Source: Candidatus Culexmicrobium cathedralense
GTDB taxonomy: Archaea > Thermoproteota > Methanomethylicia > Culexarchaeales > Culexmicrobiaceae
Length of the DNA stretch: 64,000 bases
Assembly: GCA_025061115.1 (NCBI GenBank)
Contig: JANZKC010000003.1
Span: 1-64,000, forward strand
Reading direction: 5' to 3'
Under the pieces are notes generated by a model. That model was not told the origin of the DNA. It did not search any database and was given only the letters and a program-made list of their open reading frames with translations. Made by a program: the position numbers and the translations under genes. This document shows positions 17,653 to 34,200 of the stretch, in pieces. Position 1 is the first letter of the stretch. Every line of letters begins with the position of its first letter.

Positions 17653-17741
17653 CTCTCGGCTCTATAATCTATAACATGCTTTATAAATTCTCCTGGATCT
17701 GTTTATTTTGAGTGTTAAATTCACGTTTCAGTCGTTTCTGA

Positions 17742-18308
17742 TCATCGAGTAGATTTGATATTTCTTGGTGCAGTAAAATATTTTGATCCTAAGTGGAGTG
17801 GAAGTTCTACCTTATCGATATCCCATATTCCTTTTTTGAAGCTGTCCTTGTCTGCATATGCTGCAACTACTTGGCCTAGAAATATCGTTATTTCTCCAGC
17901 TTCAACTGCATTTACAAGTTTGCACTCTAAGTGTGCGATGCAATTTTCAATTATTGGAGCTTTAACCCTTCTAGCTTTAGCAAGCTTTAATTTTAGCAGT
18001 TCAATTTTGTTGACTCTTTTCCCACTTCTTGTTCCAGCAGTCCAGATTTCCTTGATCATGCTCATGTCTGGAACATTTACGGTGAATTCTTTGGTTTTTC
18101 TTATGAGTTCATTGGTGTATGCTTTGCGTGATATTGCTAGTGCTATAAGTGGCGGCACTTCGCTTACGGGCATGCTCCATGAGCAGGTCATTACGTTGGG
18201 TTTTCCATTTTCATCTGTTGAAACAATTAGTAATGATAATTTGGGGTGAAGCAATTTGTAGAAGTCGTCTTCAACGTCTATCTTATTATATTCTTTCACG
18301 TTCATCAC
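17742..18308 (-). CDS. Flavin reductase-like FMN-binding protein
   Basis: NVMTCSW.MPVS..PP, EFTVNVP, GTRSG...K, AHLEC. Confidence 0.88.
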   Translation of the reverse strand: MMNVKEYNKIDVEDDFYKLLHPKLSLLIVSTDENGKPNVMTCSWSMPVSEVPPLIALAISRKAYTNELIRKTKEFTVNVPDMSMIKEIWTAGTRSGKRVNKIELLKLKLAKARRVKAPIIENCIAHLECKLVNAVEAGEITIFLGQVVAAYADKDSFKKGIWDIDKVELPLHLGSKYFTAPRNIKSTR

Positions 18309-18335
18309 CTAAATGTCATCGGCTTCCCGTATATT

Positions 18336-19439
18336 TCACTTCTTCAGTCGACCGTACTTGATCATGATGTCTATGAGCTTATCTATTGGTATTGCATGTC
18401 TAACGTGGTTGTCTCTTCCTTCCATTGTTACTGCCTTTAATATTGAGTTTATTATTGCTTCTTCAACTGCTTCAGCTGCTGCCTTGAATAGTGGTGATAG
18501 TTTTTGATCTATTAGAACTTTCTCTTCATGAATTGGCTGTTCAGAGTAATGGGGAATTTTAATTGCTGTTGAAAATGCAACTACAAAGTCTCCGCTTCCA
18601 TGGGATGAGTAGCTTCCAGTTCTAGCAAGCCCGTGAGTTGCTCTTTTAGCTAGTCTGTGAAGTTGTCTTGCTGTTAGTGGCGCGTCGGTTGCAATTACCA
18701 TTACAATTGATCCACCTTTTTGAGGTTGAGTGCTTCTCATGTAGTTTCTTAATTCCCATCCCACTGGTACTCCTGTTATTAGAAGGTCTTCTCTTCTTCC
18801 GAAGTTCGAGAGGACGAGTGCGCCGACGGTATAGCCACCATATTTAGCTGGAAGTTTTCGTGAAGAAGTTCCTATTCCTCCTTTAAATTCAAATGCGGAC
18901 ATGCCTGTTCCTGCTCCTACAGCTCCTTCTTCAATTGCTCCGCCTTTGGCGCTCTTGATGGCTTCAAATACATGTTCATGTTTAACGTGTCTTCCTCGAA
19001 TGTCATTTAAGTAACTGTCATTGCATTCAAGAACGACTGGATTGACGGTTCCCGTCGTAACTCCTATGTCTGGATTTAATTGAAGCATGTAATCTATTAT
19101 TGCATCTGCAACCAAGCCGACATTTAATGTGTTCGTTAAAGCTATCGGAGTTTCAAGTTGCCCTAGCTCATTTAGCTGTATGAGTCCAATCGGTTTTCCA
19201 AATCCATTAATTACGAATGAGCTAGCTCTCACCTTATTTTTAAAGGGGTTGCCTTCATGAGGCAGAATTACTGTAACTCCAGTTCTCACTGGACCTTTTC
19301 CAGGTATGAGCTTTCCACTCCCCCTTATGATTGTGCAGTGGCCTACGAGGACGCCTTTCACGTCGGTTATCGAGTTATATTTTCCCGGATTTAAGTGCCC
19401 AATTTCAATTCCAATTTCTCTTGCACGAGGTCTTTCCAA
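18336..19439 (-). CDS. dmpA: DmpA-like L-aminopeptidase/D-esterase (peptidase S58)
   Basis: NSITDVKGV.VGH, RTGVT, ECND, EGAVGAGTGM, GGSI autoprocessing site, GSGD. Confidence 0.92.
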   Translation of the reverse strand: MERPRAREIGIEIGHLNPGKYNSITDVKGVLVGHCTIIRGSGKLIPGKGPVRTGVTVILPHEGNPFKNKVRASSFVINGFGKPIGLIQLNELGQLETPIALTNTLNVGLVADAIIDYMLQLNPDIGVTTGTVNPVVLECNDSYLNDIRGRHVKHEHVFEAIKSAKGGAIEEGAVGAGTGMSAFEFKGGIGTSSRKLPAKYGGYTVGALVLSNFGRREDLLITGVPVGWELRNYMRSTQPQKGGSIVMVIATDAPLTARQLHRLAKRATHGLARTGSYSSHGSGDFVVAFSTAIKIPHYSEQPIHEEKVLIDQKLSPLFKAAAEAVEEAIINSILKAVTMEGRDNHVRHAIPIDKLIDIMIKYGRLKK

Positions 19440-19481
19440 TCACATCACCAAACGAAGTTTTTGAGTTTGATTTTTAAGTGA

Positions 19482-19760
19482 TTAGATTGGTTTAGCCTTA
19501 TAGACTTCTATTTCGTCGATGCTTCTGATTGCGCAGCTATACTCTTCTATAGTTTCAATTACGTCATCGAAATCTATGTCTTTGCCTTCAATGGTTATTG
19601 ATATGGTTTCAGTGTTCGCATCTACCTCCTTAACTACTATTGCGACATCATTAGTTCCCGATACTTCGCAGAGAGCTTTAGAGAGGTCGACTAAGGATAT
19701 TTCTCGAGGCTTTAATACGTCAATAACTATTCTCTTAAGCTTAACATCCGACTCAGACAT
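19482..19760 (-). CDS. DUF211 family protein
   Basis: LKRIVIDVLKP...EVD..T...ITIEG...AIRSIDE pattern. Confidence 0.82.
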   Translation of the reverse strand: MSESDVKLKRIVIDVLKPREISLVDLSKALCEVSGTNDVAIVVKEVDANTETISITIEGKDIDFDDVIETIEEYSCAIRSIDEIEVYKAKPI

Positions 19761-19771
19761 ACACCTCCCCC

Positions 19772-20413
19772 CTACAAGCTATATAGAACGTGCAACAATA
19801 ATCCGAGAATTCCAGTTACTAGTCCAGCACATGTAGTTGCAATGCTATAGTAAAGGATTCTTTCGCCAGATATTTTGCCGAGAAATAGCCCGAGAACCAT
19901 TAGTAGTACTAATATGGTAGCTATTGAAGCTAGTATTGCTGTCCAAGCATCTATTACTCCTATGACTGCTAGTAATATTGGTATTAGAGATATTGCCGTA
20001 GCAAGTACTGGAGAGAGAGCGTCGATGAAGGCAGCCATGATGGCTGCGACTTTAGCTGCTCTCTCAATTACGGAGTCATCTAAGTCTATGTGAAGCGCTC
20101 TTTCAAGTTTTTTAATTCTTCTTGAGCGCTCAGCTTCTTCAGCTAAGTAAGCGCCGAAAAATCCTGAAACGCCCATTGCAATTCCAGCGCCTATTCCTGT
20201 TGTTAAAATGATTTTTGGAGATAGTCCTCCTCCTATTATTGCTCCAATTAATACTCCTAACATTGTAACTGCGCCATCAAATGCGTTCATGACGAAGTAT
20301 CTTCTTGCAATTTCACTTACACCTGAGAGCTTTATGTAGTACCTTAAATTGTCAGCTTTTTCTTCCAATACTTCTAAGAAGCTGAGGGAATCGCTTTCTT
20401 CTTCTCCACCCAA
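19772..20413 (-). CDS. VIT1/CCC1-like membrane protein (TIGR00267-like)
   Basis: RRYFVMNAFDG, GVSGFFGAYLAEEAER; usual neighbour of DUF211. Confidence 0.82.
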   Translation of the reverse strand: MGGEEESDSLSFLEVLEEKADNLRYYIKLSGVSEIARRYFVMNAFDGAVTMLGVLIGAIIGGGLSPKIILTTGIGAGIAMGVSGFFGAYLAEEAERSRRIKKLERALHIDLDDSVIERAAKVAAIMAAFIDALSPVLATAISLIPILLAVIGVIDAWTAILASIATILVLLMVLGLFLGKISGERILYYSIATTCAGLVTGILGLLLHVLYSL

Positions 20414-20527
20414 CTTATATGTTAACCTCCAAAATAGATAGAGTGTTATTTGCTATTAAAATTTGCGACCACAAAATCGATGTGAAATGATAAAGTAAAA
20501 TAAAGTGGTAAAATAAGGTGAGGATTT

Positions 20528-22129
20528 CTAGTGTCCAAGAATTTCCTCTATTTCGTCAGTGTCGCATTCTTCAACTAGTGGTATGCCTGTAACTTTAGCT
20601 GCTCTTTCAGTTAGTGCCATGAGGTCTTTTCTGTCGATTAGGTCTAGGCGCCACTTTCTGCATCCGGCTACTAGCTGCTTTAGTGAGAACGCCATTTTGT
20701 CGAAGTAGCTGTATAGACCAACTGCTGGTAGCGGTATTTCCTTCCACCTTTCACCGAATCGGGTCTTTAGCTCAGGTATTGCTGAGAAGAACTTGTATGG
20801 GTCTTCACCGTACTTGTTCTTGAACCAGGCTGGAAGCTTGCCTTTCTCAGCTAGCTCTACGAAGTATCTTGCCTTCATAACGGCGGTTATCGGTGCTCTT
20901 GCCATTGCTATTGCCTTGACGTAGGGGCCTTCTCCAAAGTTGCTTAGAGCTATGGCTTTGAACACTTGGGTTTCATTTGAGAATCCGCCTGCCATTACAA
21001 TGTCAGGTATGTACATTCCCTTCTTGTACATGATTCTAATGCACTTCAACACTAGAGCTTCGAGGTACACAGTGGGTATGCCCATTTCCTGCATCATTGG
21101 AATTGGACTCATCCCAGTTCCGCCGCCAGCTCCATCGAAGGTCACGTAGTTAACCTTTGCTTCAGAAGCAACTTTCAATGTCCAAGCAACAACTGCTGGC
21201 CTATACGCTCCAGTTTTTAGCGTAACGTATTTTGCTCCTTGCTCTCTAAGCCACTCAACGTCTTCAACGAAGTCTCTAGCTCTTGGCATTCCAACTCTGC
21301 TGTGCCTTTCAAAGCTTCTTAGGGTTCCATCTCTAAATGCCTCTTGAACTACTGGGTCTTCTGGATCTGGAATTACTATGTATCCTCTCTTCTTGAGCTC
21401 AATAGCCCTTTTCAGATCCTTAATCCTGACTTCTCCTCCGATAGCCTTTGCGCCTTGACCCCACTTTCTCTCTATGCCGTTGACTTCGAGCTTGCTTAGA
21501 ACGTAAACGTCAACACCCAAGCGCATGTCTTCAACGTTTGTCTGGACAATTATTTCGCCGTACTTTCCATCCCAAAACTGCTTGTAAGTTTGAATTCTGT
21601 ACTTCATATCAACTGTGTCTACAACTTTTCCATTGCTGTCGAACTTTGCCTCCATATCCATTCCGACCACATTTTCGCCTACTGTCATTATTGTGCCTGA
21701 AATTGCAGTTCCAACTGCAAGGCCATCCCAGTTGTTCTTTGCAACTGCTGTTGAGCCTAAAGCTGCAACTAGGAATGGCACCTTTAGAGGTATTCCTCCT
21801 ATCTTTGTTGTTACGTCTACGTTTGGAAATATTGCTACATCGGAGTCTTCAGCTATTCCCTTAGCGCCTCTCACTTCAGCTTGAATGTTGAAGTGCGACC
21901 AGTCTAGGCCGTAGTTCTTGTTTGATGCTGCGGTGCTCCAGCCGAACCAGTCTGGTGAGGGGTAAACGAGTTCTTTACCCCTGATTGCTGACATGCCAAC
22001 TTCGCATGGGAATGGGCAGTCCTTAATGCATAGTGGGCATAAGCCGCTGAAGGGACTTACTTCAGCTAGTGGTACTCTAGTTGATGTTTCATTTGTAGGT
22101 TTTCTATTTCCATATCTTTCAGATAGCAT
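20528..22129 (-). CDS. FMN-binding glutamate synthase family protein (GltB domain-2-like)
   Basis: KWGQGAKAIGG, DGAGGGTG, AGG, ARAP FMN-barrel motifs; N-terminal CxxCxxxCxxxC. Confidence 0.85.
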   Translation of the reverse strand: MLSERYGNRKPTNETSTRVPLAEVSPFSGLCPLCIKDCPFPCEVGMSAIRGKELVYPSPDWFGWSTAASNKNYGLDWSHFNIQAEVRGAKGIAEDSDVAIFPNVDVTTKIGGIPLKVPFLVAALGSTAVAKNNWDGLAVGTAISGTIMTVGENVVGMDMEAKFDSNGKVVDTVDMKYRIQTYKQFWDGKYGEIIVQTNVEDMRLGVDVYVLSKLEVNGIERKWGQGAKAIGGEVRIKDLKRAIELKKRGYIVIPDPEDPVVQEAFRDGTLRSFERHSRVGMPRARDFVEDVEWLREQGAKYVTLKTGAYRPAVVAWTLKVASEAKVNYVTFDGAGGGTGMSPIPMMQEMGIPTVYLEALVLKCIRIMYKKGMYIPDIVMAGGFSNETQVFKAIALSNFGEGPYVKAIAMARAPITAVMKARYFVELAEKGKLPAWFKNKYGEDPYKFFSAIPELKTRFGERWKEIPLPAVGLYSYFDKMAFSLKQLVAGCRKWRLDLIDRKDLMALTERAAKVTGIPLVEECDTDEIEEILGH

Positions 22130-22345
22130 TTAAAATCACCCTCCACACAAAATTCCATTTCATGGGCGTTGAGCAATAGCGAAAATCTAAATATAAGGTT
22201 TACTGAAAAATGTTCATTTAACGTCTCCTAAATATTTCTTTTACTTAACTAATGTGAATCATAGCTTTTTGGCTTAAAAGGTTAAATTGGTTGAAGCTGA
22301 AAGATTCATTAGGCTATTTGCGAAACATATGTTGAGAGGATTTGT

Positions 22346-23677
22346 TTGAAGATGATTGAAGTAGAAGAGGAAATTATGCTTAGGCTAAGAGGGGGGAAGG
22401 TCGCATATCACCTCGTTGATGGTGAAACGATTTTAATTGATGCTGGCTTATATCCATTTGACAAAAGTAAAATTCCGATTCAATGCAAATTGCCGGAGGA
22501 AAAGCTTGAAGAAAAATTTGGGTACACTAGCGGGAATAGGTCCGTGGTGTTTAGATTTGGTGATGGCTGGTTTAAAGCTAAGGCGATAGGTATTCCTTCA
22601 GGAGTTTCCCAGCCGATTTATCGTCGAAGAATCGTGCACACATACTACTTGTATAATGCTTTTATTGGGTCTGGAAGAGTAGTGTGGGGTTTCATGACCA
22701 TTGGAGAAGCAGAGCGAGAAATATATTGGATGAATAAAGCTTGGGAGCTTGATTTACCAGCAACTCGTCCAATTGGAATTGGAGTTTATCCTAAAGTGAA
22801 AATTCTTGAGTTTCCAAATAGGCATGCTTTATTCAACTTCCTAAGGGCAAAGAGCCGAGATGAAGTTTTGAACTTATTTGAATGCGATGGTAAAAATGCT
22901 GGTGCGGCCTGCCTTTTTAGCCTTGAACCAGGCGATGTCAGAGCCGACGAAATTCTATATGGCCTTTTATTTCCAAGAATTGATGAGCTCATGGATTTAG
23001 AGGAATGCAAGGCATATTTGAGGTGGCTAGGGTCTTCTTGCGCTTACAATTTAAGGCTGCATCATAATAGTGGAATTTTGCATGGTACTATACGTAGAGA
23101 GGATGGGTTAATGACTAACTCTCACTTAGCAAATCACATTGTTGGTTTTGAAAAAACTTGGGTTACCGATTATCACATGGCTTCAGAAATTAGAAGTAGG
23201 GCTGAAGAGAAGCTTAAGTTAGAGGAGTACTACTGCTTATGGCATGTAATGAATCCGCTTCCAGCAGCTAGTTTACTGGTCAGGGCAAGAAGAAGGAGAA
23301 TATCTCTTCTCGAATTACCTCAAATCCAGTTTGAAGTAGCGCCTTACAAGAGCTTTTATGTGTGGGAGAACATCATGAAGATTCACGCTGGATTATATTC
23401 TCCTGCAAGCATTTATGAAGAGCTAACTGCATCATTAATTGACGGAATGGAGTATGGGTATAATAGGGGTAAAGTGCTTGAGGTTGAGCGGAAGTTAAAA
23501 AGGAAAATGCTAATTAATCTATCTATTCTTAAGGAGGAGCTCTGGAACCTTTATGGCTTGCCGAAGGGAATGCAGCGGGGAGTTGAAGTTTTGCGCAACT
23601 TGATGAGGGTGAAAAAGCTGGATGAAGATTACCTGAATCGAAAAATTTTGGAGTTGAAAGAGATACTGTGCGTCTAG
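22346..23677 (+). CDS. Hypothetical protein, SelO/atypical protein-kinase-like fold
   Basis: Motif order SGNRS, FKAKAIG, EAERE, LPATRP, GILHG, N..VTDY parallels SelO-type kinase fold. Confidence 0.55.
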   Translation: MKMIEVEEEIMLRLRGGKVAYHLVDGETILIDAGLYPFDKSKIPIQCKLPEEKLEEKFGYTSGNRSVVFRFGDGWFKAKAIGIPSGVSQPIYRRRIVHTYYLYNAFIGSGRVVWGFMTIGEAEREIYWMNKAWELDLPATRPIGIGVYPKVKILEFPNRHALFNFLRAKSRDEVLNLFECDGKNAGAACLFSLEPGDVRADEILYGLLFPRIDELMDLEECKAYLRWLGSSCAYNLRLHHNSGILHGTIRREDGLMTNSHLANHIVGFEKTWVTDYHMASEIRSRAEEKLKLEEYYCLWHVMNPLPAASLLVRARRRRISLLELPQIQFEVAPYKSFYVWENIMKIHAGLYSPASIYEELTASLIDGMEYGYNRGKVLEVERKLKRKMLINLSILKEELWNLYGLPKGMQRGVEVLRNLMRVKKLDEDYLNRKILELKEILCV

Positions 23678-25041
23678 CGTAGCATGTCAGCTTCGACTTC
23701 TGTGAGAACTTCCTCGATGATGTCTATTGCTTTGTCCATTAGTTCCCTAGTTATGGTTAGTGGTGGAGCAATTCTAATCGTAGATTTGCCTGCACCTATC
23801 ACTGCAATGCCTCGTTTAAAGCAGCGTATCAGCGTCTCAGAAAGCTCTTTAACTGCGGGCTCCTTGGTTTCCTTATTGCGGACTAACTCTACTCCAATCA
23901 TTAATCCCTTACCTCTAACGTCGCCTATGATTTCCATTTTCTCCTGCATTTCCTTGAACCGCTTAATCGTATACTCTCCAATTTTAGTTGCATTTTCGAG
24001 CAGATTTTCCTCTTTAATTATTTCTATAACTACGTTGGCGGCAGCGCATGAAACTGGATTTCCTCCAAATGTTGATGCGTGGCTTCCCTTCGGCAGGTTC
24101 ATTATCTCTTCTCTGCCGATTATTGCTCCAAGAGGCATTCCTGCAGCGATGCCCTTGGCAACTGTAATTAAGTCTGGAGCTACATTCCAGTGTTCGATTG
24201 CAAACCACTTTCCAGTTCTTCCCATGCCTGCTTGAACTTCATCTGAAATCATTAAAATGCCGTATTTTTCGCATAGCTTCTTTATTTTTAGCCAGTAGTT
24301 CGGCGGAGGAACCACGTATCCTCCCTCTCCTTGAATTGGCTCGAAAATTATGCATGCAGTTTCATCTGGTGGAACGTACTTTTTGAAGTAATATTCCTCT
24401 ATGAAGTCTACGCACCAGTATCCGCAGTCAGGGTATTCCTGCTTCCAAGGGCACCTGTAGCAGTATGGGTATGGGACATGCTCGACGCATGGCAGAAGTG
24501 GTGAAAACCACTTTCTCTGAACAGGTTTGCTTGAAGTTAGAGCCATCGCTCCGAAGAGCCTTCCATGGAACGAACCTATGTACGCTATTATGTAGGGCCT
24601 AGATCCTTTAAAGTACGCCCTTGCAGCTTTTATGGAACCTTCAACTGCTTCAGCTCCGCTATTGCAGAAGAAAACCTTTTTCTTGAATTTTCCTGGAACT
24701 ATCTCTACGATTTTTTTGGCTAAAGCTACTGCCGATTCATAGTAGAAGTCGGTTAATGAGTAGTGGAGAAGCTTTTCGCACTGCTTCATAATTGCTTCAA
24801 TAACTTTTGGATGCCTATGCCCAACAGAAATGACTGCAATTCCAGCATTTAAGTCAATATATTTATTTCCATCAACGTCAATTAGTATGCAATCTTCGGC
24901 TCTATCCACGACGAGTGGATACCACCTTACAAATGACTGCATCAAGTATTCAGAATCTTCCTCTAGTAGCTTCTTTGCTTTAGGTCCTGGAGGAGTTACG
25001 ATGATTTTTGGAATATCGTCTAATTTCATGTTTATCCCCAT
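23674..25041 (-). CDS. Class III PLP aminotransferase (ornithine/lysine/4-aminobutyrate omega-aminotransferase-like)
   Basis: NSGAEA, SFHGR, EPIQGEGG, DEVQAGMGRTG, AKG, STFGGNP. Confidence 0.9.
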   Translation of the reverse strand: MGINMKLDDIPKIIVTPPGPKAKKLLEEDSEYLMQSFVRWYPLVVDRAEDCILIDVDGNKYIDLNAGIAVISVGHRHPKVIEAIMKQCEKLLHYSLTDFYYESAVALAKKIVEIVPGKFKKKVFFCNSGAEAVEGSIKAARAYFKGSRPYIIAYIGSFHGRLFGAMALTSSKPVQRKWFSPLLPCVEHVPYPYCYRCPWKQEYPDCGYWCVDFIEEYYFKKYVPPDETACIIFEPIQGEGGYVVPPPNYWLKIKKLCEKYGILMISDEVQAGMGRTGKWFAIEHWNVAPDLITVAKGIAAGMPLGAIIGREEIMNLPKGSHASTFGGNPVSCAAANVVIEIIKEENLLENATKIGEYTIKRFKEMQEKMEIIGDVRGKGLMIGVELVRNKETKEPAVKELSETLIRCFKRGIAVIGAGKSTIRIAPPLTITRELMDKAIDIIEEVLTEVEADMLR

Positions 25042-25072
25042 TCATCAAATTAAGAAACAAAGTATAAAAGGT

Positions 25073-26683
25073 TTAAGAGGTTGCAGAATATACGATAGCT
25101 CCATTAACGATTGTCATTATAACTTCAATGTCCTTCAACTTTTCAGCTGGAATTTCCGTTGGGTCATCTGATAATACGACTATGTCTGCAACTTTCCCCA
25201 CTTTAATTGAGCCCTTTATATCTTCTTCGAAACCTAAGTAAGCCGCGTCCAAAGTAAACATTCTTATTGCTTCTAGTGGAGTTAAGCACTCGTTGGCGGT
25301 GTATTCATACAATTTTATTTTTTCGAATTTGCCTCTTGTAACTGCGGAGTATATTTGGTAGATTGGGTCGAGTGGATCTACTGGGCAGTCTGATCCACCT
25401 CCAATTCTAACTCCACTTTTCATCATTGACTTGAATGGGTATACCCACTTAGCTCTCCTTGGACCTACCCTGTCCACCGACCAAAAGTCTGAAATTATAA
25501 ATCGAGGCTGGACGGAAGCAACCATTCCAAGTTCGCTCATTCGCTTAATGAGATCTTCTCTAATTACCGATGCATGTTCAATTCTATGCCTATGGTCTAA
25601 ACGTGGATTTTTCTTGATTGCTGCTTCCACAGCGTTTATAGCCATCTCTATCGCTCTATCCCCGATAGCGTGAATTGCTAGTTGTAATCCTGCTTCATGG
25701 GCTTTCTCGACTATTGCCGCAAGCTTCTGGTATGGTAGCACTACTATTCCCATGTTATTTGGATTTACGGGATCATCGGCGTATGGCTCGCTTAATGCAG
25801 CTGTTCTCGCTCCTAGGGATCCATCAACGAGTAGTTTTACTCCATTGATTTTGAGGTTATCATCTCCAAATCCTCGCATAACTCCAAGTTTAGTTAAGTG
25901 TTCTAAGCAGTCTGATTTAATGTATAGGCAGACTTTAAGTGGAAGTTTATCCATTTTCTTTAAAATTTGAAGCAGCCTAAATTCTTCTGGTGTTGCAGAT
26001 ACAAAGTGCACTGTTGTGATTCCATGCTTCACAGCTTCTTTACAAGCTTTTTCTGCTGCTTCTAAAGATTCCTCTAAAGTTGGTTTTGGAATTTTCTCCC
26101 ATACAAACTGCATTGCCTTTTCTCTCAAAATCCCGGTTGGCTCGCCACTTTCATTCCTGTCTATTTTGCCTCCTTCAGGATCCGGTGTATCTTTCGTTAT
26201 ACCTGCTATTTCCAATGCCTTTGAGTTTACCACGCATATATGGCCGCAAACTCGTCTTAACATCACTGGATTTTCCGGAGAAACTTCGTCCAAATCCCAT
26301 CTCGTAGGGTATCGGCCTTCAATAAATTTATCTTGGTCCCAGCCTCTACCAAGAATCCACCTTCCTTTCGGCGTAACTTCAACTTTTGATTTAACTTTAC
26401 TCTTAATGTCTTCGATTGACGTTGCATCTCTTAAGTCGATCCACATTAATGAAAAGCCGAAGCCTATCAGGTGTATGTGCGTGTCGATGAAGCCTGGAAC
26501 AACTGTTTTACCTTTGACATCAATTACTTTAGTATTTCCGCCGATAAGTTCTTCAACATCCTTGTTTGATCCTACATAAATTATCTTTTTATCTTTAATT
26601 GCAATTGCTTCTGCTTTAGGTTTTTCCTCATCCATCGTTATTACATTCGCATTTAGTATAACTAGGTCTGCAAATAAATTCAC
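25073..26683 (-). CDS. Amidohydrolase-3 family, YtcJ-like
   Basis: PGFIDTHIH, DGSLGARTA, HAIGD, RIEHAS, GSDCPV. Confidence 0.9.
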   Translation of the reverse strand: MNLFADLVILNANVITMDEEKPKAEAIAIKDKKIIYVGSNKDVEELIGGNTKVIDVKGKTVVPGFIDTHIHLIGFGFSLMWIDLRDATSIEDIKSKVKSKVEVTPKGRWILGRGWDQDKFIEGRYPTRWDLDEVSPENPVMLRRVCGHICVVNSKALEIAGITKDTPDPEGGKIDRNESGEPTGILREKAMQFVWEKIPKPTLEESLEAAEKACKEAVKHGITTVHFVSATPEEFRLLQILKKMDKLPLKVCLYIKSDCLEHLTKLGVMRGFGDDNLKINGVKLLVDGSLGARTAALSEPYADDPVNPNNMGIVVLPYQKLAAIVEKAHEAGLQLAIHAIGDRAIEMAINAVEAAIKKNPRLDHRHRIEHASVIREDLIKRMSELGMVASVQPRFIISDFWSVDRVGPRRAKWVYPFKSMMKSGVRIGGGSDCPVDPLDPIYQIYSAVTRGKFEKIKLYEYTANECLTPLEAIRMFTLDAAYLGFEEDIKGSIKVGKVADIVVLSDDPTEIPAEKLKDIEVIMTIVNGAIVYSATS

Positions 26684-26774
26684 TAAAACGCACCTCCGAA
26701 CTAATTTTAATTGATGATAATATAAGAGTTGAGTGTGTCAATTTAAGTGATATTGAGTTGAGAGGGAGGTTCAT

Positions 26775-27635
26775 TTGAAGTTAGTCATAGACTTTGTCAA
26801 ATATCAAGGATGTGGAAATGACTTTATAATAATAGATGAACTTGATCATGAAATCGTCCCTGAGGAGCTGAAAGGCGCAGTCTCAAGAATTATTTGCAAG
26901 CGAAGATTTTCAGTAGGTGCAGACGATGTCCTATACTTGCTTCCATCCAATAAAGCTTATGCATGGATGCGTATTTTCGAACCCGACGGCACCGAAGCAG
27001 ACATGTGTGGAAATGGGATAAGGTGCGCTGCAAGCTACCTTTGTGAAAAGCTTAGGAAAAATAGCGTTCTAATAGAAACAAAAGCCGGAGCAAAGTTGAT
27101 CAAGAAGATAGATGGTTACTTTAAGGTTGATATGGGTAGGCTTCTAAGAAAACTCTATGAGCTCAAGGATTTCGTCAGCGTTGAGTTTGAGGAGGAAGAG
27201 GACCTTATAGGAAGGCGTGTATCATTTCCGTTGGTAGGTGAACTGGAAATTTCAATAGTTAAAGTTGGAGAGCCACATGCTGTAATTTTTGTTGAAGATG
27301 TTGAAAAGGAGGATATGGAGGAATACGCTAAGGCAATTGCAATGAACAAAAAGTTTTTCCCAAAGGGAATAAGTGTAAATTTGGTTCAAATTGTCAGTGA
27401 AAATACAATAAAAGTTAGAACTTATGAGAGGGGAGTTTGGGGAGAAACTTTAGCTTGTGGAACCGGCTCAACTGCTTCAGCAGCAGTAGCTTATATCTTG
27501 GGTAAAGTTAAGGATAAGAAGATCAAGGTAAAAGTGAGGGGTGGAGAACTAACGATACTTGTGGAAGGGAATGCCTTATACTTGATCGGTCCTGCTCAAA
27601 AAGTATTTGATGGGAGAATTGAAATAAATGTTTAA
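26775..27635 (+). CDS. dapF: DapF-fold PLP-independent epimerase/racemase with altered substrate pocket
   Basis: GNDF, MCGNG and ACGTG two-Cys catalytic motifs, YERG; pocket Asn residues changed (see findings), so DAP specificity is doubtful. Confidence 0.85.
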   Translation: MKLVIDFVKYQGCGNDFIIIDELDHEIVPEELKGAVSRIICKRRFSVGADDVLYLLPSNKAYAWMRIFEPDGTEADMCGNGIRCAASYLCEKLRKNSVLIETKAGAKLIKKIDGYFKVDMGRLLRKLYELKDFVSVEFEEEEDLIGRRVSFPLVGELEISIVKVGEPHAVIFVEDVEKEDMEEYAKAIAMNKKFFPKGISVNLVQIVSENTIKVRTYERGVWGETLACGTGSTASAAVAYILGKVKDKKIKVKVRGGELTILVEGNALYLIGPAQKVFDGRIEINV

Positions 27636-28092
27636 TTACCAAATTATTCTTTCATGACATCTATAAATAAACTCGTTAAGGCAATAAAATTTCTTGCTTC
27701 AGCAATTGCATCAGAAATAAATGTTGGAAACACTGCTACAGCTCTACATTTAGCTGCGTTAATAGAGTTTACCTTTGGCTAATGGAGAACGTGTTCATAG
27801 AAGATTTTTGAGCTTAACTTATCATATTAATGATGCGTCGTTAACTCCGAGTGCGGTAGTATTGCAGTTCAAGCAAGTGGAATTGCTTTAAGCCTTAATA
27901 GTTCAGCTAAAGTTAAAGTTGCATTTGAAGTAGCTGTCAGTGTTAGCTAAGCAATGTAAATTGGCATAGTAATTGAAGGAGTAAGAGGGATTGAATGTGC
28001 TTCAATAGTTCAGAAAAACTTAGATTAAACCGCAATATTAAGAATGTAAACTGCCAATTTAGATTAAATTGCATAACTGGAGGTGGCTTAAG

Positions 28093-29721
28093 GTGTATGA
28101 TCTCGTTATTAAGAATGGGCGTGTAATTGACGGCACCGGCAACCCATGGTTTAAAGCTGACATAGCAGTTAAAGATGGAAAGGTAGTTGAAATTGGAGAA
28201 ATACCACAGTCAAAAGCTGATGAAGTTATTGATGCAACTGGCCAAATTGTATGTCCGGGTTTCATAGACATGCACAGCCACTCAGACCTTTTTCTTCTAA
28301 TAAATCCAAAGGCTGAAAGCAAAATTAGGCAGGGCGTAACGACCGAGGTTATCGGCAATTGTGGAGCAAGCCTATTCCCAATATTACCTGGTAAAGTGGA
28401 GATTTTCATGAAGCGAGTTGGCGCATTAGCTGAGGAAGTTACTTGGGACTGGCATACGCTTGATGAATATGCCGAGAAGCTTGAGAATCAGGGGATTTCC
28501 GTAAATGTCGTTCCACTTGTTGGTCATGGCACCTTAAGGATCAATGTTATGGAATTTGAGAATAGAGCTCCAACAAAAAATGAATTGGATGAGATGAAGG
28601 CTTTGCTCGAAGACTCTCTTAAAGTTGGAGCTTTCGGCATGTCGACTGGACTGATATACACGCCTGGGTCGTATGCCAATACTGAAGAGATAATTGAGCT
28701 GGCAAAAGTTGCTTCAAGATATGGCGGAATATATGCGTCTCATGTTAGAAGCGAAAGCACGTGGCTTTTAGAAGCAGTGAGGGAGGCAATTAGAATCGGT
28801 AAGGAAGCTGATATTCCAGTTGAAATTTCACATTTAAAGTCAGCTGGAAGGAGGAATTGGGGAAAAGTTAGAGATGCTTTAAGAATTATTGAAGCTGCTA
28901 GGGATGAGGGCGTAGAGGTTACGTGCGACTTTTACCCATATACTGCTGGAAGTACTGGTCTTGCTGCATGTTTACCTCCTTGGGCTCATGAGGGCGGATT
29001 GGAGGAAATGCTAAAAAGGCTCAACGACCCGTCGGCAAGAGCTAAGATGAAGAAAGACATAGAACGGGGATTGCCTGGGTGGGAAAATCTGGCTGGAACA
29101 GCTGGTTGGGACAGCATAGTTGTAGCTTACTGTGAAAAGAATAAGGAGTATGAAGGATTAAGCATAGCTGAAATAGCAAAGATGAGGGGTGTGGATCCTT
29201 TTGATGCTGCATTCGACCTTCTTCTAGAGGAGGAGGGTGTTGTAAGCATTATTTTGCATATGATCTGTGAAGATGACATGCGATACGTCATGAAGCATCA
29301 GCTAACGATGGTTGGAACGGACGGCTCATGCTATGCGCCGTACGGGCCATTGGCTAGGGGGAAGCCTCACCCGAGGAATTATGGAACGTTTCCAAGAATT
29401 TTAGGTAGGTATGTTAGAGATGAGAAAGTGCTTTCACTGCAGGATGCAATTAGGAAGATGACTTCAATGCCTGCGCAGAAACTTGGATTGAGAGATCGCG
29501 GCTTAATTAGAGAGGGATTTTGGGCTGACATAGTGATATTTGACCCGCATAAGGTACTCGATAAAGCTACCTTTAAGAATCCGCATCAGTATCCTGAGGG
29601 AATAACCTATGTCATTGTTAATGGGAAAGTTGCAATAGAAAAAGGGGAGCATACGGGCGTTTTGGCAGGGAAGGTTTTAAGGAGAGGTTCTCATCGATAC
29701 TCCGCCAATACCAAGTCGTAA
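28093..29721 (+). CDS. N-acyl-D-amino-acid deacylase (D-aminoacylase)
   Basis: PGFIDMHSHSD, GNCG, STGLIY.PG, HVRSE, SHLK, HPRNYGTF; start set at GTG28093 after RBS GGAGGTGG. Confidence 0.92.
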   Translation: MYDLVIKNGRVIDGTGNPWFKADIAVKDGKVVEIGEIPQSKADEVIDATGQIVCPGFIDMHSHSDLFLLINPKAESKIRQGVTTEVIGNCGASLFPILPGKVEIFMKRVGALAEEVTWDWHTLDEYAEKLENQGISVNVVPLVGHGTLRINVMEFENRAPTKNELDEMKALLEDSLKVGAFGMSTGLIYTPGSYANTEEIIELAKVASRYGGIYASHVRSESTWLLEAVREAIRIGKEADIPVEISHLKSAGRRNWGKVRDALRIIEAARDEGVEVTCDFYPYTAGSTGLAACLPPWAHEGGLEEMLKRLNDPSARAKMKKDIERGLPGWENLAGTAGWDSIVVAYCEKNKEYEGLSIAEIAKMRGVDPFDAAFDLLLEEEGVVSIILHMICEDDMRYVMKHQLTMVGTDGSCYAPYGPLARGKPHPRNYGTFPRILGRYVRDEKVLSLQDAIRKMTSMPAQKLGLRDRGLIREGFWADIVIFDPHKVLDKATFKNPHQYPEGITYVIVNGKVAIEKGEHTGVLAGKVLRRGSHRYSANTKS

Positions 29722-30617
29722 ACCATATCTCTTTCAGTCAATATCCCAACAAGCTCATTATTTTCAACTACTGGTAGTGCTCCAATTCTCCTCTCGGACA
29801 TTATTTTTGTTGCTTCGCCCAATTCGGCATCTGGACTTATTGTTATGACTGGAGATGACATGATATTCGATATGGGTATTCGAATTAAGTCGTATATGCT
29901 GCATTTGGGCGACAGCTGAATTGCCCTTTTCAATTGAAATAGCTTTACTATATCCATGGCAACAACTATTCCAACCAGCTTGTCATCAACTATAACTGGA
30001 AGCCTTCTAAAACCTAAATTTATCATGGTTTGGGAAGCTTCTTTAACTGTTGTTTCTGGGGATGCCGTAACTACATCCTTTGTCATTATGTCCTTTACCT
30101 TCTTTCCGGTAACCTTATTAGCCAAATATCGAAGCACATCTCTTTCGGTGATGATGCCAAACACCTTTTCATCTTCATCTACTATTGGGACTGCCCCCAC
30201 ATTATTGACTACCATCCGCTCTAGAACATCTACAAACGTCTCGTCAATATATGCCTTAACGACGTTCCTCACCATTATTGATTCAATAGGCTCTTCAACC
30301 GCCTTATACAAATTTCCTTCATGCCTATTAACTATGATGTTGAAGTAATCTCCACCGCCAAAATAATTCACCAAGTCTGTTGCAGTTACAATTCCTAGCA
30401 GCCTCTTGTCAGGCATGGTGATTGGAACCCTTCTGAATCCGTGGCTTACCATCATTTGAATAACCTCTTTAACTGGAGCTCGCTGGGATGCCGTTATTAC
30501 AGGTTTCTTAACAATTACGCTCAGTTCAAATTCTCTTTCGTAAATTTTATCTGAGAAGTTGGGCTTGCCATCACTCCTTAAAAAGCGAGGTTCAATTCTT
30601 CTCATTTTACATTTCAT
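29691..30617 (-). CDS. CBS-domain-only protein (two CBS pairs)
   Basis: Four repeats of RxPV...LxGI(V/I/L)TxxD; no enzymatic domain. Confidence 0.92.
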   Translation of the reverse strand: MKCKMRRIEPRFLRSDGKPNFSDKIYEREFELSVIVKKPVITASQRAPVKEVIQMMVSHGFRRVPITMPDKRLLGIVTATDLVNYFGGGDYFNIIVNRHEGNLYKAVEEPIESIMVRNVVKAYIDETFVDVLERMVVNNVGAVPIVDEDEKVFGIITERDVLRYLANKVTGKKVKDIMTKDVVTASPETTVKEASQTMINLGFRRLPVIVDDKLVGIVVAMDIVKLFQLKRAIQLSPKCSIYDLIRIPISNIMSSPVITISPDAELGEATKIMSERRIGALPVVENNELVGILTERDMVYDLVLAEYR

Positions 30618-30664
30618 TTAGTCACCGATGATAATTAGGTTAATACAAATATATACGCATTAGG

Positions 30665-31114
30665 TTAATGCGTTACTGCAACTTTATTTCCACCGGCCCT
30701 TTTAACTTCTCTCAAAAGCTTTAACGCTCTCTTTCTCGTATAGCTGTTATATGCATCTCTTCTATTTTTAGCTGGCTTGCCTGTTACTGGTCCCAAAGCT
30801 ACTGCAATAGATATGGAAGCACCTAACCGACTTATTTCCATCCTAATACGCTCTAGATCTTCAATGATTTCTTCCAAATCCTTCTCAGAAATGTCTGGTA
30901 TTTCAAGAACAACTTCTTCCGTACCTCTCTTTTCATCTAAACCATAAATAACCACTGCAAAGTGCTTGCGAACGAATTGCCAGACCAGCGTTGTGAGTGT
31001 TCCAGTAATTATATTTGGCACATACTCGCTCCATCCTCGACTTTTGCTGAGCTCCTCAAACTTGTCTAAATCCATTATTATGACGCATCCAGTTAGCATA
31101 ACTTCAAACACCAA
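30665..31114 (-). CDS. Stand-alone GGDEF-like (nucleotide cyclase palm) domain protein
   Basis: IIMDLDKF, RGTEEV, LERIR, SISIAVA, VKRAGGNKV map in order onto the GGDEF consensus; alternative start ATG31099. Confidence 0.65.
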   Translation of the reverse strand: MVFEVMLTGCVIIMDLDKFEELSKSRGWSEYVPNIITGTLTTLVWQFVRKHFAVVIYGLDEKRGTEEVVLEIPDISEKDLEEIIEDLERIRMEISRLGASISIAVALGPVTGKPAKNRRDAYNSYTRKRALKLLREVKRAGGNKVAVTH

Positions 31115-31137
31115 TTTACTTAATGGTTAAGTTTTTG

Positions 31138-31195
31138 ATTTCAGCTGAGGACCACTTCTTCATCTGGTGGTCGGGCGGGGTATTTTCATCATCAA
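31138..31195 (-). ncRNA. C/D-box methylation-guide sRNA
   Basis: Minus strand: C box ATGATGA (31186-92), 11-nt guide, D' CCGA, C' ATGAAGA, 12-nt guide, D CTGA (31141-44); canonical spacing; TATA about 24 nt upstream. Confidence 0.85.
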
Positions 31196-31218
31196 GAACT
31201 ATAAGAGTGCTAAGGTAA

Positions 31219-31226
31219 ATATAAAA
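31219..31226. promoter_or_regulatory. TATA-like element usable in both directions (rgy and C/D sRNA)
   Basis: ATATAAAA on plus / TTTTATAT on minus; about 24 nt from the sRNA 5' end and 35 nt from the rgy ATG. Confidence 0.5.
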
Positions 31227-31261
31227 TTGGCTGAATTGAAGCGATGACCCGAGGTTGAATC

Positions 31262-34200
31262 ATGAACTCGATTAGGAGTCATGGAATATATAGGCATGCT
31301 TGTCCAAACTGCAGGGGCGAGGAAGATGATGGCAGGCTCTTTCTGGGAGCTCCATGCTTTAAGTGCTTCCCACGTGAAGTTGAAAGTAGAATTTCAATCT
31401 ACAAATTATATGATCTTCTAAGGAATTATGGTTCTCTTAAAGAAGTTAAAGAGCTATTTAAATTGCATAAGGGCTTGGATGAAGTTGATGAGCTTTTCCA
31501 TAAAGCGACTGGAAGTAGGTTGTGGAGCATTCAAAGAACATGGGTTAAGCGTGTTTTGAAAGGAAGGAGTTTCACTATCATAGCTCCTACTGGTGTTGGC
31601 AAAACTGTTTTCGGCATGATAATGGCTCTTTTTCTTGCCTTAAAGGGTAAAAAAGCATACATCATAGAGCCAACCACTCCACTTGTACTTCAAGTTTATA
31701 ATAGGTTAATTAGTTTCGCAGATAAAGCAGGATTAGATGTGCAAATAATTGCTTATCATGCCCGTCTCAAACCTAAAATTAAGAGCGAAGTACTAAGCAA
31801 GATTTCAAATGGGGACTTCGATATTCTCATAACAACATCAAGATTTCTAACTGCGCGATTTGATGCTTTAAAGGGTAAGCATTTCCATTTCATATTTGTT
31901 GATGATGTCGATGCGATATTGAAGAGCTCTAAAAATATCGACCGTATTCTAAGCTTGCTTGGATTTACTGATGACGAAATTGCAGACGCTTACGAGCTCG
32001 TTAAACTTAGGAATAGAATTACCAAGTTAATTAGCTTGCATAGGAAAAGTCCGGAGATCAAAGAGTTAATGGAAAATTACGATAAACTTGTGAAGCGAGT
32101 AGCAAAGATTAAGGGCAAATCGAAATCGATTCTCGTTGTTTCGAGTGCTACGGGAAGACCTAGAGGACTGCGCGTTAAACTATTTAGAGAACTTTTAGGC
32201 TTTGACGTTGGATCTAGGTCGGAGCTACTTAGAAACGTAGTAGATGTTTACTGCAAGGTTTCTCCTGAAAAATCAATTGAGGAGATGATAGTTGAGCTGG
32301 CAAGTAATCTTGGATCAGGAGGACTCGTATTCGTTCCAGTAGATAAGGGTCTCGAGTACGCTGAGAAGTTAGCAGAAATACTTGTTGAAAGCGGAATTAA
32401 AGCTGAAGCTTTTTCCTCCAAGAACATTGAAGCTTTAAGTAGGTTTATTGAAGGGGAAAGCGATGTCTTAGTTGGCGTAGCTTATTACTATGGAGTTATG
32501 GTTAGAGGCCTCGATCTACCAGATAAAGTGAGGTATGCATTATTCGCCGGGATTCCAAAATTTAAGTTTAACACCAAGTTAGATGAGCCTCATCCCTCAA
32601 ATATTCTTCGTGGATTAACGATAATTAGCGAAGTTGTTGAAGGAATTGAGGAAAAAAGGCGAATTGAAAGGCTAATTGCTAGGGTTAGGCGTTACATGCA
32701 AATTTTGCCTGTGGCGCTCTTAAATGAAATTGGTGGCAAGCTAGCTGAAGGCATTAAACCTAGTACTGACGCTGAAAGAGTATTTTACGAGGCTCTTCAA
32801 GTACTTAGGAGCTACTTGGCTAGAAGCGACATCAAGGATAAGCTGAAGAAACTGGAAGATGTAAGGTTGATCGAAGAAAACGGGAAAACTTTCATTTTAA
32901 TACCGGATGTCATGACTTACATTCAAGCTAGCGGTAGGACATCCAGAATGTTCGCTGGAGGATTGACGAAGGGGCTCTCGATTGTAGTGGTTGATGATGA
33001 GCACTTACTTAAGGGACTTATGAAGCGCGCTAAGTGGATTATTGAAGACATGGAGTGGCGAAGCTTAGAAGAAGTTGACATAAAATCCATAATTGATGAG
33101 ATAGATAGAGATAGGCTAGCGGTTAAGCAGTTGCGTGAAGGTAAAATAAGAATGGAATTTAAAGATCCAATGAAGACGGCGCTGATGGTTGTAGAATCGC
33201 CAAATAAAGCTAGAACTATCGCCAACTTCTTTGGGAAGCCTAGCGTGAGGAGATTTGAAGAACTTAAGGTATACGAGGTTTCTACTGGAGAGCTACTTTT
33301 AATGATCACCGCAAGTGGCGGCCACATTTATGACTTAGTGACAGACGTAGGTTATCATGGAGTTTTACTTCCAAAAGATGGTGGAGCCTTCCTCCCAGTA
33401 TACACTGCAATAAGAAGGTGTTTGAAGTGCGGATATCAATTCAGCGATGACCTGGATAAGTGTCCTAAGTGCGGCAGTAGCGTTTTGAGGAATTCGCTTA
33501 AAGTAATTGACTTCATTAGAGCTCTCTGCGAAGAAGTTGATTTAGTGCTGATCGGAACTGATCCTGACACTGAAGGAGAGAAAATTGGGTGGGATTTAGC
33601 TGCTCTCCTCACGCCATACGCGAAAGAGGTTAAGCGAATAGAATTCCACGAAGTAACTAAAAGGGCAATACTGGAAGCATTAAGGAGCGCGAGAAGCTTC
33701 GATACAAATCTCGTAGAAGCGCAGATAGTTAGGAGAGTTGAAGATAGGTGGATAGGTTTTGAATTGAGCAAACGATTATGGAGTGCATTCAAGAGAAGGG
33801 GATTATCTGCAGGTAGAGTTCAAACACCAGTTTTAGGCTGGATTATTGAGAGGGAGAGGGAGTTTAAGGAGAGCTTTAAGAACGTGTACTCAATATTGCT
33901 GCCATATGGCATTAAAGTTGAATTGACGGAAGATGAAGTATTGGAAAAGCTCGTCAAAGCTGAGCTCGTCAAGGCGAAAATTAAGGTCTTGGACGTGGTT
34001 GAAGAAGATATGCACCCGCCTCCACCCTACACGACTGATACTTACCTGCACGATGCTTCTAAAAAGCTTAGGTTAACCGCACCTGAAGCCATGCAAATAG
34101 CGCAGGACCTATTTGAACTAGGCTTCATAACATATCACAGAACAGATAGCACGAGAGTCTCCACATTTGGACAATATGTTGCTAAGGAATATTTGTCTGA

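Follow-up and report, generated by a model that had tools for sequence, protein, structure and literature searches.

An acidic-pocket branch of the DapF fold beside D-aminoacylase genes: candidate cofactor-independent racemases for basic amino acids

The locus

This study concerns a gene for a protein resembling diaminopimelate (DAP) epimerase, DapF, in a 64,000-nt stretch of DNA from Candidatus Culexmicrobium cathedralense (contig JANZKC010000003.1, positions 1 to 64,000; "the window" means this whole stretch). The gene stands in a region of four genes (23674-29721) with those for a class-III aminotransferase, a YtcJ-like amidohydrolase of the Amidohydro_3 family and a protein of the D-aminoacylase family (Table 1), which are the neighbours that had been named in an earlier reading of the same DNA from its letters alone (the original prediction). 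The DapF-like gene has a TTG start with a GGAGG-like motif just upstream, inside the spacer from which it and the YtcJ-like gene are divergently transcribed. It had also been claimed that no other dap or lys gene is nearby, and indeed no such biosynthetic gene was present among the 53 open reading frames (ORFs) of the window scanned with Pfam, the sole amino-acid-kinase ORF being a carbamate kinase. An Rfam scan of positions 16000-32000 (E<=0.1) gave zero matches. The window also carries a reverse gyrase gene (31262-34909), which marks the organism as a hyperthermophile.

Table 1. Features of the studied region and its surroundings (window positions; E-type is defined in the text)
Feature	Position	Strand	Size and basis
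E-type DapF-like cofactor-independent racemase (predicted)	26775..27635	+	286 aa; Pfam and NCBIfam, alignment, predicted structure
Class-III (omega-type) aminotransferase	23674..25041	-	455 aa; QGEGG motif
YtcJ-like Amidohydro_3 metal hydrolase	25073..26683	-	536 aa; Pfam 473 bits
D-aminoacylase-family amidohydrolase	28069..29721	+	550 aa; Pfam Amidohydro_3
Peptidase S58 (DmpA-like aminopeptidase)	18336..19439	-	367 aa; Pfam 417.5 bits; 7 kb upstream
AT-rich divergent intergenic spacer	26684..26774	.	91 bp, between the YtcJ-like and DapF-like genes
Glutamate-synthase-FMN-domain protein	20528-22129	-	533 aa; N-terminal Cys-rich motif; 84% identical in same-family genome G003
443-aa protein	22346-23677	+	Pfam and NCBIfam without match; overlaps stop of aminotransferase gene

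Sequence and predicted structure of the DapF-like protein

Automated models place the protein among the DAP epimerases. It reaches 185.7 bits on Pfam DAP_epimerase (PF01678; cutoff 34.7) and 251.4 bits on the DapF equivalog model TIGR00652 (cutoff 114.65), and its top matches among solved structures are all DAP epimerases (E 9e-43 to 9mro). Structure was modelled with AlphaFold on the database twin P0001, whose sole difference from the window protein is residue 62. The model (predicted local distance difference test, pLDDT, 92.5; predicted template modelling score, pTM, 0.90) has a two-domain, pseudo-symmetric fold with one cysteine in each domain and superposes best on a ligand-bound DapF (9mro; template modelling (TM) score 0.87-0.89, root-mean-square deviation 2.2 A); the top 15 Foldseek matches are all DapF structures. 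The histidine racemase structures 9cr1/9cr6 reach TM scores of 0.65-0.73 to the model. The score on the histidine racemase family NF052224 (HisR/CntK) is 30 bits (cutoff 400) and that on the bifunctional DapF/glutamate racemase family NF038284 is 145.9 bits (cutoff 350). The nearest named relatives come from metagenome-assembled genomes (MAGs) labelled Culexarchaeum, Culexmicrobium and Methanomethylicia.

Residue equivalences were taken from a HMMER alignment to H. influenzae DapF (1gqz/2gke). All of the altered motifs that had been quoted are found where they had been placed, at residues 48-51 (GADD), 66-72 (RIFEPDG), 165-168 (GEPH) and 200-202 (SVN), as are both cysteine motifs (MCGNG, 77-81; ACGTG, 227-231). 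With the window residue in brackets, the equivalences are N11 (N15), Q44 (D51), N64 (E69), C73 (C78), N157 (E166), N190 (S200), E208 (E218), R209 (R219) and C217 (C228). The half of the site that holds the reacting centre in H. influenzae (C73, C217, N11, G74, N75, G218, S219) is intact: catalytic Cys78 and Cys228 are kept, and the ligands N15, G79, N80, G229 and T230 are present. A passage of PMC8225329 gives N11 as the ligand of the alpha-amino group and G74/N75 with G218/S219 as ligands of the alpha-carboxylate.

The distal half is altered. N64, N157 and N190 hydrogen-bond the distal carboxylate of DAP, as the original prediction had it and as a passage of PMC8225329 (citing Pillai 2006) confirms; in the same passage R209 forms a salt bridge with this carboxylate, and E208 and Q44 bind the distal amine. 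In the window protein the Asn triad is gone (E69, E166, S200) while the distal ligands Glu208 and Arg209 are retained as E218 and R219, a point that was absent from the original prediction. In addition E192 of canonical DapF is replaced by Asn, and an additional Trp (W222) follows ERGV in the ERG-V-W-GET loop.

The E-type clade

Proteins with an acidic residue (E/D) at both positions 64 and 157 (H. influenzae numbering) are referred to here as E-type. None of the best 120 database relatives of the window protein has Asn at 64 or 157, so that the residue changes are not due to chance; 109 of them have Glu or Asp at both positions and 118 have an aromatic residue at the inserted position. A wider census pooled these relatives with representatives and loci into 325 distinct sequences, comprising 186 E-type and 63 canonical ones. 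Throughout the 186, N11, C73, N75, E208 and C217 are kept nearly without exception: Glu208 occurs in all and Arg209 in 176 (95%). Asn stands at all three distal positions in every canonical sequence (63/63). At position 192 the E-type has Asn or Asp where 47/63 canonical sequences have Glu, and 169/186 carry Y, F or W as the inserted residue. The canonical "NVE" with which the SVN motif had been compared thus holds for most canonical sequences but is not universal, since H. influenzae itself has Gly there. Likewise, of the four motif changes that had been singled out, those at N64 and N157 extend across the clade, but N190 is kept in 174/186 E-type sequences and Asp at position 44 is found in only 68/186, the change of N190 to S and that of position 44 to D being confined to the sub-clade of the window. 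As read from the alignment, the clade signature is N64 to E/D, N157 to E/D and E192 to N/D together with the aromatic insertion. The distal pocket would then carry one net extra negative charge and have less room.

A tree drawn up with FastTree from 210 rows, of the kind that the original prediction had suggested for the EPDG/GEPH motifs, puts all E-type rows (83/83) inside one clade of 90 rows, which is free of rows with Asn at both positions. A nested set of 83 rows with the window protein has a Shimodaira-Hasegawa-like support of 96. When 1.84 billion representatives were searched, 24 of the 134 length-filtered top matches were E-type. Judged by its sequences, the E-type is a distinct, monophyletic and widespread branch of the DapF fold, as yet uncharacterised.

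Two variants were observed in this branch. Order-level relatives (loci L032, L033; P0009-P0015) form a sub-lineage with E64, V157 and S209 (RVLEPDG / GVPH / YESGVW) in another neighbourhood, with a GT2 glycosyltransferase and ThiF, and may represent a further change of specificity. Loss of Arg209 was considered as an argument for a new substrate and rejected, as the residue is kept in 95% of the E-type and the joint change E157V/R209S belongs to one lineage (8 sequences). The other variant, P0126, is a natural fusion of 630 aa that joins a DUF917 protein to an E-type DapF.

Co-occurrence with the diaminopimelate pathway

The phyletic distribution was determined in 121 genomes of the class Thermoplasmata, plus a few genomes of other groups. 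Scores on the E-type profile (A1) are bimodal in the Thermoplasmata, with 12 genomes carrying the E-type (370-405 bits), 16 the canonical type (182-213 bits) and none both. DapB is above its cutoff in 16/16 canonical and 0/12 E-type genomes, and the same counts apply to LysA, which in the canonical genomes is typically encoded beside dapF. In the two Caldisericota genomes the E-type is the sole DapF-family gene and DapB is absent. Among 40 relatives of the window's genome, eight carry a DapF-family match, one gene each, scoring 224-255 bits if complete and lower if cut or broken. No real DapB was found in 12 relatives of this genome, nor on the main contigs of its own assembly (G000). Furthermore, dapA, dapB, lysC, lysA and dapL are missing from the neighbourhood in all 80 loci retrieved around relatives. 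As its carriers lack DapB and LysA, the E-type clade is not part of DAP and lysine synthesis, and the view that the window protein is no ordinary DapF is borne out by this as well as by the tree.

Weak N-terminal "DapB" matches in the relatives correspond to a protein of the window's assembly that resembles 2,4-diaminopentanoate dehydrogenase. The gene for it, Ord-like (contig C2:429988-431028; Pfam DAP_DH_C; 333 bits on NF040740, under the cutoff of 400), occurs in every relative. Its neighbours are a D-glutamate-cyclase-like gene and genes for a Liv-type ABC transporter, and it hints at chemistry of the D-ornithine type, as a lead only.

The same assembly includes a second DapF-family gene on a 7.3-kb contig, C10 (1-7314). 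Its product is canonical (315 bits; RIFNPDG, GNPH, NVE, GADG), falls outside the E-type clade in the tree and is encoded in the order asd(partial)-dapA-dapB-lysC-lysA-dapF-dapL. C10 could represent contamination, an island acquired by transfer or DNA that varies between strains. The MAG that holds the window has a reported contamination of 7.65%; the LysA of C10 is 38% identical to the native LysA on contig C1, and the GC content at third codon positions is somewhat higher in C10 than in the window genes. The tetranucleotide correlation of C10, 0.82, is within the spread of the other small contigs. Alignment of four DNA runs showed C10 in all of them, in many short pieces rich in single-nucleotide polymorphisms, which fits the same genome and a co-resident population alike; the window's locus is present in all four runs too. 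A full DAP pathway in the genome had been named as evidence that would count against the original prediction, and formally C10 supplies one. However, the C10 operon has its own canonical DapF and so, whatever the origin of C10, does not need the window's gene, which argues for redundancy and not against the idea.

The native LysA (C1:239593-240900) is an orphan, encoded away from the window locus. It scores 484 bits on the lysA equivalog and 275 bits on the model for D-Orn/D-Lys decarboxylases (cutoff 700). A strong LysA without DapB recurs in 10 of the 12 relatives and likewise in the Caldisericum genome G041. Such a LysA may draw its substrate from DAP salvage or may have a role as a D-amino-acid decarboxylase. 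A candidate for the alpha-aminoadipate (AAA)/LysW route in G000 was rejected, the best match being 21 bits inside an ORF of 323 aa and hence not LysW. The "DapF2" of GapMind 2026 is, in the passages that deal with it, a member of the S. aureus Alr2 family, often annotated as alanine racemase, and is not of the DapF fold; an alternative DapB is not mentioned in these passages. The GapMind 2026 authors also report that deleting dapF in E. coli leaves growth unimpaired and causes secretion of DAP.

Gene neighbourhoods of E-type genes

For a census of gene neighbourhoods, ORFs of 80 loci (66 E-type and 14 canonical-type) were clustered and representatives annotated. The partner most widely conserved beside E-type genes is the D-aminoacylase. 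Homologues of the 550-aa window protein lie within 10 kb in 36/66 E-type loci and within 500 bp in 35/66, the latter against 0/14 canonical-type loci. Outside the window's lineage they are 42-55% identical and occur in Thermoplasmata and one Chloroflexota genome, so that the proposed tie to a D-aminoacylase stands in all three groups. Other recurrent neighbours of the E-type are deacylases of the ArgE/DapE-type M20 family (32/66), ATPases of peptide ABC transporters (25/66) and homologues of the S58 peptidase within 10 kb (22/66; 48-54% identity), the last recurring in Thermoplasmata. Save for one ABC ATPase, all of these are absent from the canonical-type loci.

Lysine 2,3-aminomutase (KamA), a radical-SAM enzyme, is encoded in 22/66 E-type loci, among them 19 of the 21 loci of Thermoplasmata type whose downstream flank is long enough. 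In two Bipolaricaulota loci it lies 0-2 bp from the E-type gene and in one Atribacterota locus at 1.25 kb. These copies score 591-615 bits on TIGR03820 (cutoff 525) and stay under the cutoffs for glutamate and arginine aminomutases. Genome-wide, a KamA above the TIGR03820 cutoff is found in 12/12 E-type Thermoplasmata genomes compared with 4/109 others. One Bipolaricaulota locus (L042) has the order AlaDh/PNT-type dehydrogenase, saccharopine dehydrogenase, E-type DapF, KamA and amino-acid-binding protein. In Thermoplasmata a conserved cluster of 20 kb (L047:792-20730; also L065) begins with an MFS transporter, a metallo-beta-lactamase, DUF1028, OppD/F, S58, an M20 deacylase and the D-aminoacylase, and continues with the E-type DapF, a HemL-like class-III enzyme, CoA transferase A/B, DUF35/HMGCS-like/thiolase genes, KamA and SAM synthetase. 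It looks like an undescribed route of lysine fermentation that does without a B12 aminomutase.

Elsewhere the surroundings of E-type genes differ. In Caldisericota (L090:4780-11910, L080, L085) the E-type gene is directly downstream of a MurA-like gene of the EPSP_synthase family, which is itself preceded by genes for SHMT, UPRTase, a GT4 protein and UDP-GlcNAc 2-epimerase; here the enzyme may provide the cell wall with a D-diamino acid. In a MAG labelled Euryarchaeota (L037:3974-10861) two different racemase folds stand side by side, an enolase-superfamily protein (MR_MLE) and the E-type DapF; the same stretch encodes an M20 peptidase, a DcuC carrier, DUF2148 and a class-III aminotransferase that shares 43% identity with the one in the window.

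The immediate partners of the window gene can be described in more detail. The D-aminoacylase homologue matches the D-aminoacylase 1m7j (335 bits) and the N-acyl-D-Glu deacylase 3gip (307 bits), and scores 249 bits on PRK09061, under the cutoff of 340. For the YtcJ-like hydrolase the top structures are the uncharacterised hydrolases 3igh and 3icj; its gene is syntenic in the MAGs G001 and G003, and two homologues (33-36% identity) occur in a Clostridia-labelled locus (L087). The aminotransferase exceeds the equivalog cutoff of NF004426/PRK05769 (672.8 against 552 bits), and its top match in the Protein Data Bank (PDB) is 7vno (454 bits), which from the title of the structure appears to be PH1423. 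According to Table 3 of PMC9986279, PH1423 (P. horikoshii) and TK2101 (T. kodakarensis) are archaeal omega-aminotransferases of the same class for L/D-Orn and L/D-Lys. The QGEGG motif, which had been read as marking a transaminase and not a racemase, is shared with 7vno and 2eo5, while the Ala/Ser racemase 9wqz and the Ile 2-epimerase 4ysn have QGD, so that the distinction holds among these four solved homologues.

Further out, the 443-aa protein is kept and syntenic in G001 and G003 (58-75% identity), but the synteny of its gene and of that for the glutamate-synthase-FMN-domain protein is limited to the window's family. In the same-genus MAG G001 (57% complete; contig C17, locus L024) the DapF-like gene is broken by an in-frame TAA (4310-5187) and the D-aminoacylase gene is split in two ORFs (7156-8808), through either decay or assembly errors. 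In the same-family MAG G003 the slot of the D-aminoacylase is occupied by a DUF917 (S-Me-THD-like) protein and an Asp/Glu/hydantoin racemase (L018:10013-11853). Another stretch of G000 (C3:250197-257538) looks like a further hydrolase island that serves modified amino acids: a second D-aminoacylase-like gene (PRK09061 233 bits) stands there beside a CpsA-like carboxypeptidase, an additional M20 amidohydrolase and two genes of the DapA family, which score 241 and 198 bits on TIGR00674. Functions related to arginine, ornithine and D-amino acids are abundant in the window, among them a PLP (pyridoxal 5'-phosphate) enzyme of the D-cysteine-desulfhydrase/ACC-deaminase family (13306-14313, +), the carbamate kinase (arcC, 444 bits; 37111-38133, -), a LysE-type exporter of basic amino acids (41990-42745, +) and an argininosuccinate synthase with a lyase-family gene (56939-59563, -).

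Discussion

From the identity of the clade, its residue changes, its phyletic pattern and its gene linkage we infer that the window protein racemises a basic amino acid, lysine or ornithine, without a cofactor, and put the probability of this at roughly 0.55. It would be a two-cysteine, PLP-independent racemase of the DapF fold in which the machinery at the reacting alpha-carbon is intact. Lysine is the first choice of substrate since it equals DAP minus the distal carboxylate. Its epsilon-ammonium group would take the place of the distal amine of DAP at Glu208; the two new carboxylates of the protein would occupy the place left free by the distal carboxylate, forming pairs with Arg209 and balancing charge; and the inserted aromatic residue would close the smaller pocket. 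D-Lys or D-Orn might be freed from N-acyl-D-amino acids or D-peptides by the D-aminoacylase, the YtcJ-like amidohydrolase and the S58 peptidase, inverted to the L-forms by the racemase, and then catabolised, through the omega-aminotransferase at the window locus and KamA elsewhere. The basic substrate of the original prediction is reasonable for lysine, in view of the presence of KamA in all 12 E-type Thermoplasmata genomes and of the PRK05769-type aminotransferase, but it has the standing of a proposal. The part given there to the aminotransferase fits its type and its adjacency, but this linkage is conserved only in the window's family, the class-III enzyme of Thermoplasmata being a different, HemL-like protein.

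While lysine is the most likely substrate, ornithine most likely comes second in the window's own lineage. The arginine deiminase pathway yields ornithine. Catabolism of arginine by this pathway has been proposed in the Culexarchaeia paper, the main text of which does not contain the words lysine, diaminopimelate, D-amino or racemase. Together with the lack of KamA, the carbamate kinase in the window and the changes at positions 44 and 190, this proposal makes ornithine a serious candidate there.

Several observations weigh against this interpretation. The KamA domain was not found in the window's genome, which means that the link to lysine comes from other phyla. A search of G000 for lysine/ornithine aminomutase (PF09043) gave zero matches, with the control genomes silent too. 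No lysine riboswitch was detected in 14 bacterial E-type loci (129 kb, Rfam gathering thresholds), which returned only tRNAs and one TPP riboswitch. Synteny of the aminotransferase and YtcJ-like genes is seen only in the window's family, and there it extends over the entire neighbourhood, reverse gyrase included. The retained Arg209, the salt-bridge partner of the distal carboxylate, means that a substrate with a distal acid group would also fit, and the E64/V157/S209 variant of the order-level relatives sits in an unrelated neighbourhood. The Chloroflexota genome G045 has DapB although the E-type is its sole DapF-family match. The orphan LysA of the relatives would suit salvage of DAP. Finally, related genomes within one class do not make independent events of the 12/12 and 0/12 counts; the number of such events is overstated, but the direction of the phyletic pattern is unambiguous.

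Alternatively, the E-type enzyme could be a racemase or epimerase for a non-basic product of the hydrolases, such as another D-amino acid, an amidated or modified DAP, or an amino acid derived from a hydantoin or an N-carbamoyl compound. Its most constant partners (D-aminoacylase, M20 proteins of the ArgE/DapE type, the YtcJ-like hydrolase, DUF917) are generic hydrolases, and both the DUF917 fusion and the hydantoin-racemase neighbour in G003 are in line with this. It is also hard to read the specificity of the fold from sequence, structure comparison having beaten BLAST for function prediction in a passage of PMC11602996. However, acidic substrates such as D-Glu and D-Asp are disfavoured by the extra negative charge of the pocket, the associations with KamA and saccharopine dehydrogenase are specific to lysine, and the histidine-racemase model is missed by a wide gap (30 of 400 bits). 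We regard a non-basic product as unlikely, although it deserves attention. It is a good deal less probable that the protein is still a DAP epimerase, employed in salvage, whereby LL- and meso-DAP from the cell-wall peptides of bacteria would be equilibrated and converted to lysine by the native LysA. The score above the DapF equivalog cutoff, the retention of E208 and R209, the occurrence of LysA without DapB in relatives and in G041, and the failure to find the LysW route in G000 all speak for salvage, and breakdown of cell-wall peptides would suit the D-aminoacylase and S58 neighbours. Against this, two of the three carboxylate-binding Asn are acidic across the whole clade, and DAP would have no outlet in the 12 E-type Thermoplasmata genomes, all of which lack LysA. 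Moreover LysA takes meso-DAP directly, so that an epimerase would be needed only for LL-DAP, and the native lysA is distant from the locus.

A flux from L to D, by which D-Lys or D-Orn would be made for the cell envelope or for a LysA-like, D-specific decarboxylase producing polyamines, appears improbable. The position of the Caldisericota E-type gene directly behind a MurA-like gene, in genomes without DapB, would agree with it, as would the native LysA, which is conserved without DapB and shares little more than a third of its residues with the LysA of C10; the chemistry of LysA acts on a D-centre. But hydrolases and a catabolic aminotransferase accompany the gene in the window, the native LysA fits the lysA equivalog and falls far below the cutoff of the D-Orn/D-Lys decarboxylase model, and Archaea are not known to have peptidoglycan. 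Least credible of all is an ordinary lysine-biosynthetic DapF in which the motif changes are neutral. Automated models call the protein DapF and several sources label its relatives "diaminopimelate epimerase", but a canonical DapF lies within a DAP operon in the same assembly, and DapB was not found on the main contigs or in the 12 relatives. This explanation is already contradicted by the phyletic pattern, in which E-type and canonical genes exclude each other, the former going with a lack of DapB and LysA and the latter with their presence.

If the reading as a racemase for basic amino acids is combined with the gene clusters of the other phyla, a wider picture may be sketched, to which we give somewhat less than an even chance. 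The E-type would be the first family of cofactor-independent racemases for lysine, or basic amino acids generally, spread among uncultured anaerobes, archaeal as well as bacterial, from sediments and hot springs. It would form the point of entry into catabolism for D-lysine that derives from necromass, N-acyl-D-amino acids and D-peptides. An undescribed and possibly B12-free fermentation of lysine (KamA, HemL-like class-III enzyme, CoA transferase, thiolase) might depend on it in Thermoplasmata, Bipolaricaulota and Atribacterota, and in Caldisericota, where it lies behind murA in genomes without DapB, it might make a D-diamino acid available to the cell wall.

The E-type is a well-defined, widely distributed and probably mis-annotated enzyme clade. 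That automated pipelines would mislabel it as dapF had been foreseen, and the window protein does pass the TIGR00652 cutoff while source names say diaminopimelate epimerase. As a consequence, when the metabolism of uncultured archaea and bacteria is reconstructed, many may be assigned a step in lysine or cell-wall synthesis that they probably do not carry out. A Lys/Orn racemase would add a new specificity to the repurposed racemases of the DapF fold, which act on His, 2,4-diaminobutyrate (Dab) and O-ureidoserine. It would also provide an enzymatic route for the use of D-amino acids by heterotrophs of the subsurface and of hot springs, and could yield a thermostable, cofactor-free biocatalyst.

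Comparison with known systems

DapF itself (EC 5.1.1.7; 1gqz/2gke and the cyanobacterial 9mro) has the same fold as the window protein and 28-35% identity to it, and the two share both cysteines, the ligands of the reacting centre, E208 and R209. They differ in the distal Asn positions, in the change of E192 to Asn, in the aromatic insertion and in belonging to separate clades; the E-type, moreover, is found in genomes devoid of DapB or LysA, and no dap gene adjoins it in any of the examined loci.

Lyr of Proteus mirabilis catalyses the very reaction proposed here, being a lysine racemase, but it depends on PLP and has an unrelated fold (PMC3485190), and the window protein is without a PLP-binding fold. 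No report of a cofactor-independent lysine racemase was found in a full-text search of the literature. In a passage of PMC8225329 the authors of the work on PddB (2021) suggest that racemases of an unprecedented, PLP-independent kind may still await discovery for certain diamino acids, and name lysine and ornithine as two of these.

Within the DapF fold, by profile scores and Arg209, the window protein is a member of none of the repurposed families. HisR (F. nucleatum) and CntK (S. aureus) are, like the E-type, DapF-fold enzymes of organisms or pathways without DAP. They set a precedent: according to PMC11602996, DapF homologues of organisms without the DAP pathway proved to be histidine racemases, and the models presented there have the cationic or polar side chain bound by Glu residues, one of them the equivalent of Glu208. 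The E-type differs from them in its context, from which metallophore genes are absent, and in the low profile and TM scores given above. DcsC, an O-ureidoserine racemase (7vdy), is likewise repurposed and is closer to the window protein (E 6e-25 by sequence, TM 0.86-0.89), but it belongs to a cluster for D-cycloserine biosynthesis and nothing of the kind surrounds the window locus. PddB of Streptoalloteichus, compared here through its published description, is a DapF homologue and a PLP-independent 2,4-diaminobutyrate racemase, in which all three distal Asn are replaced, Glu208 is kept and Arg209 is changed to Val (PMC8225329). Like the enzyme proposed here it handles a diamino acid without a distal carboxylate, with replaced distal Asn and a conserved Glu208. 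The two part at Arg209, retained in the window protein (R219) and 176/186 of the E-type, which belongs with the points against a basic substrate; and while PddB serves the biosynthesis of poly-D-Dab, the E-type would have a catabolic role.

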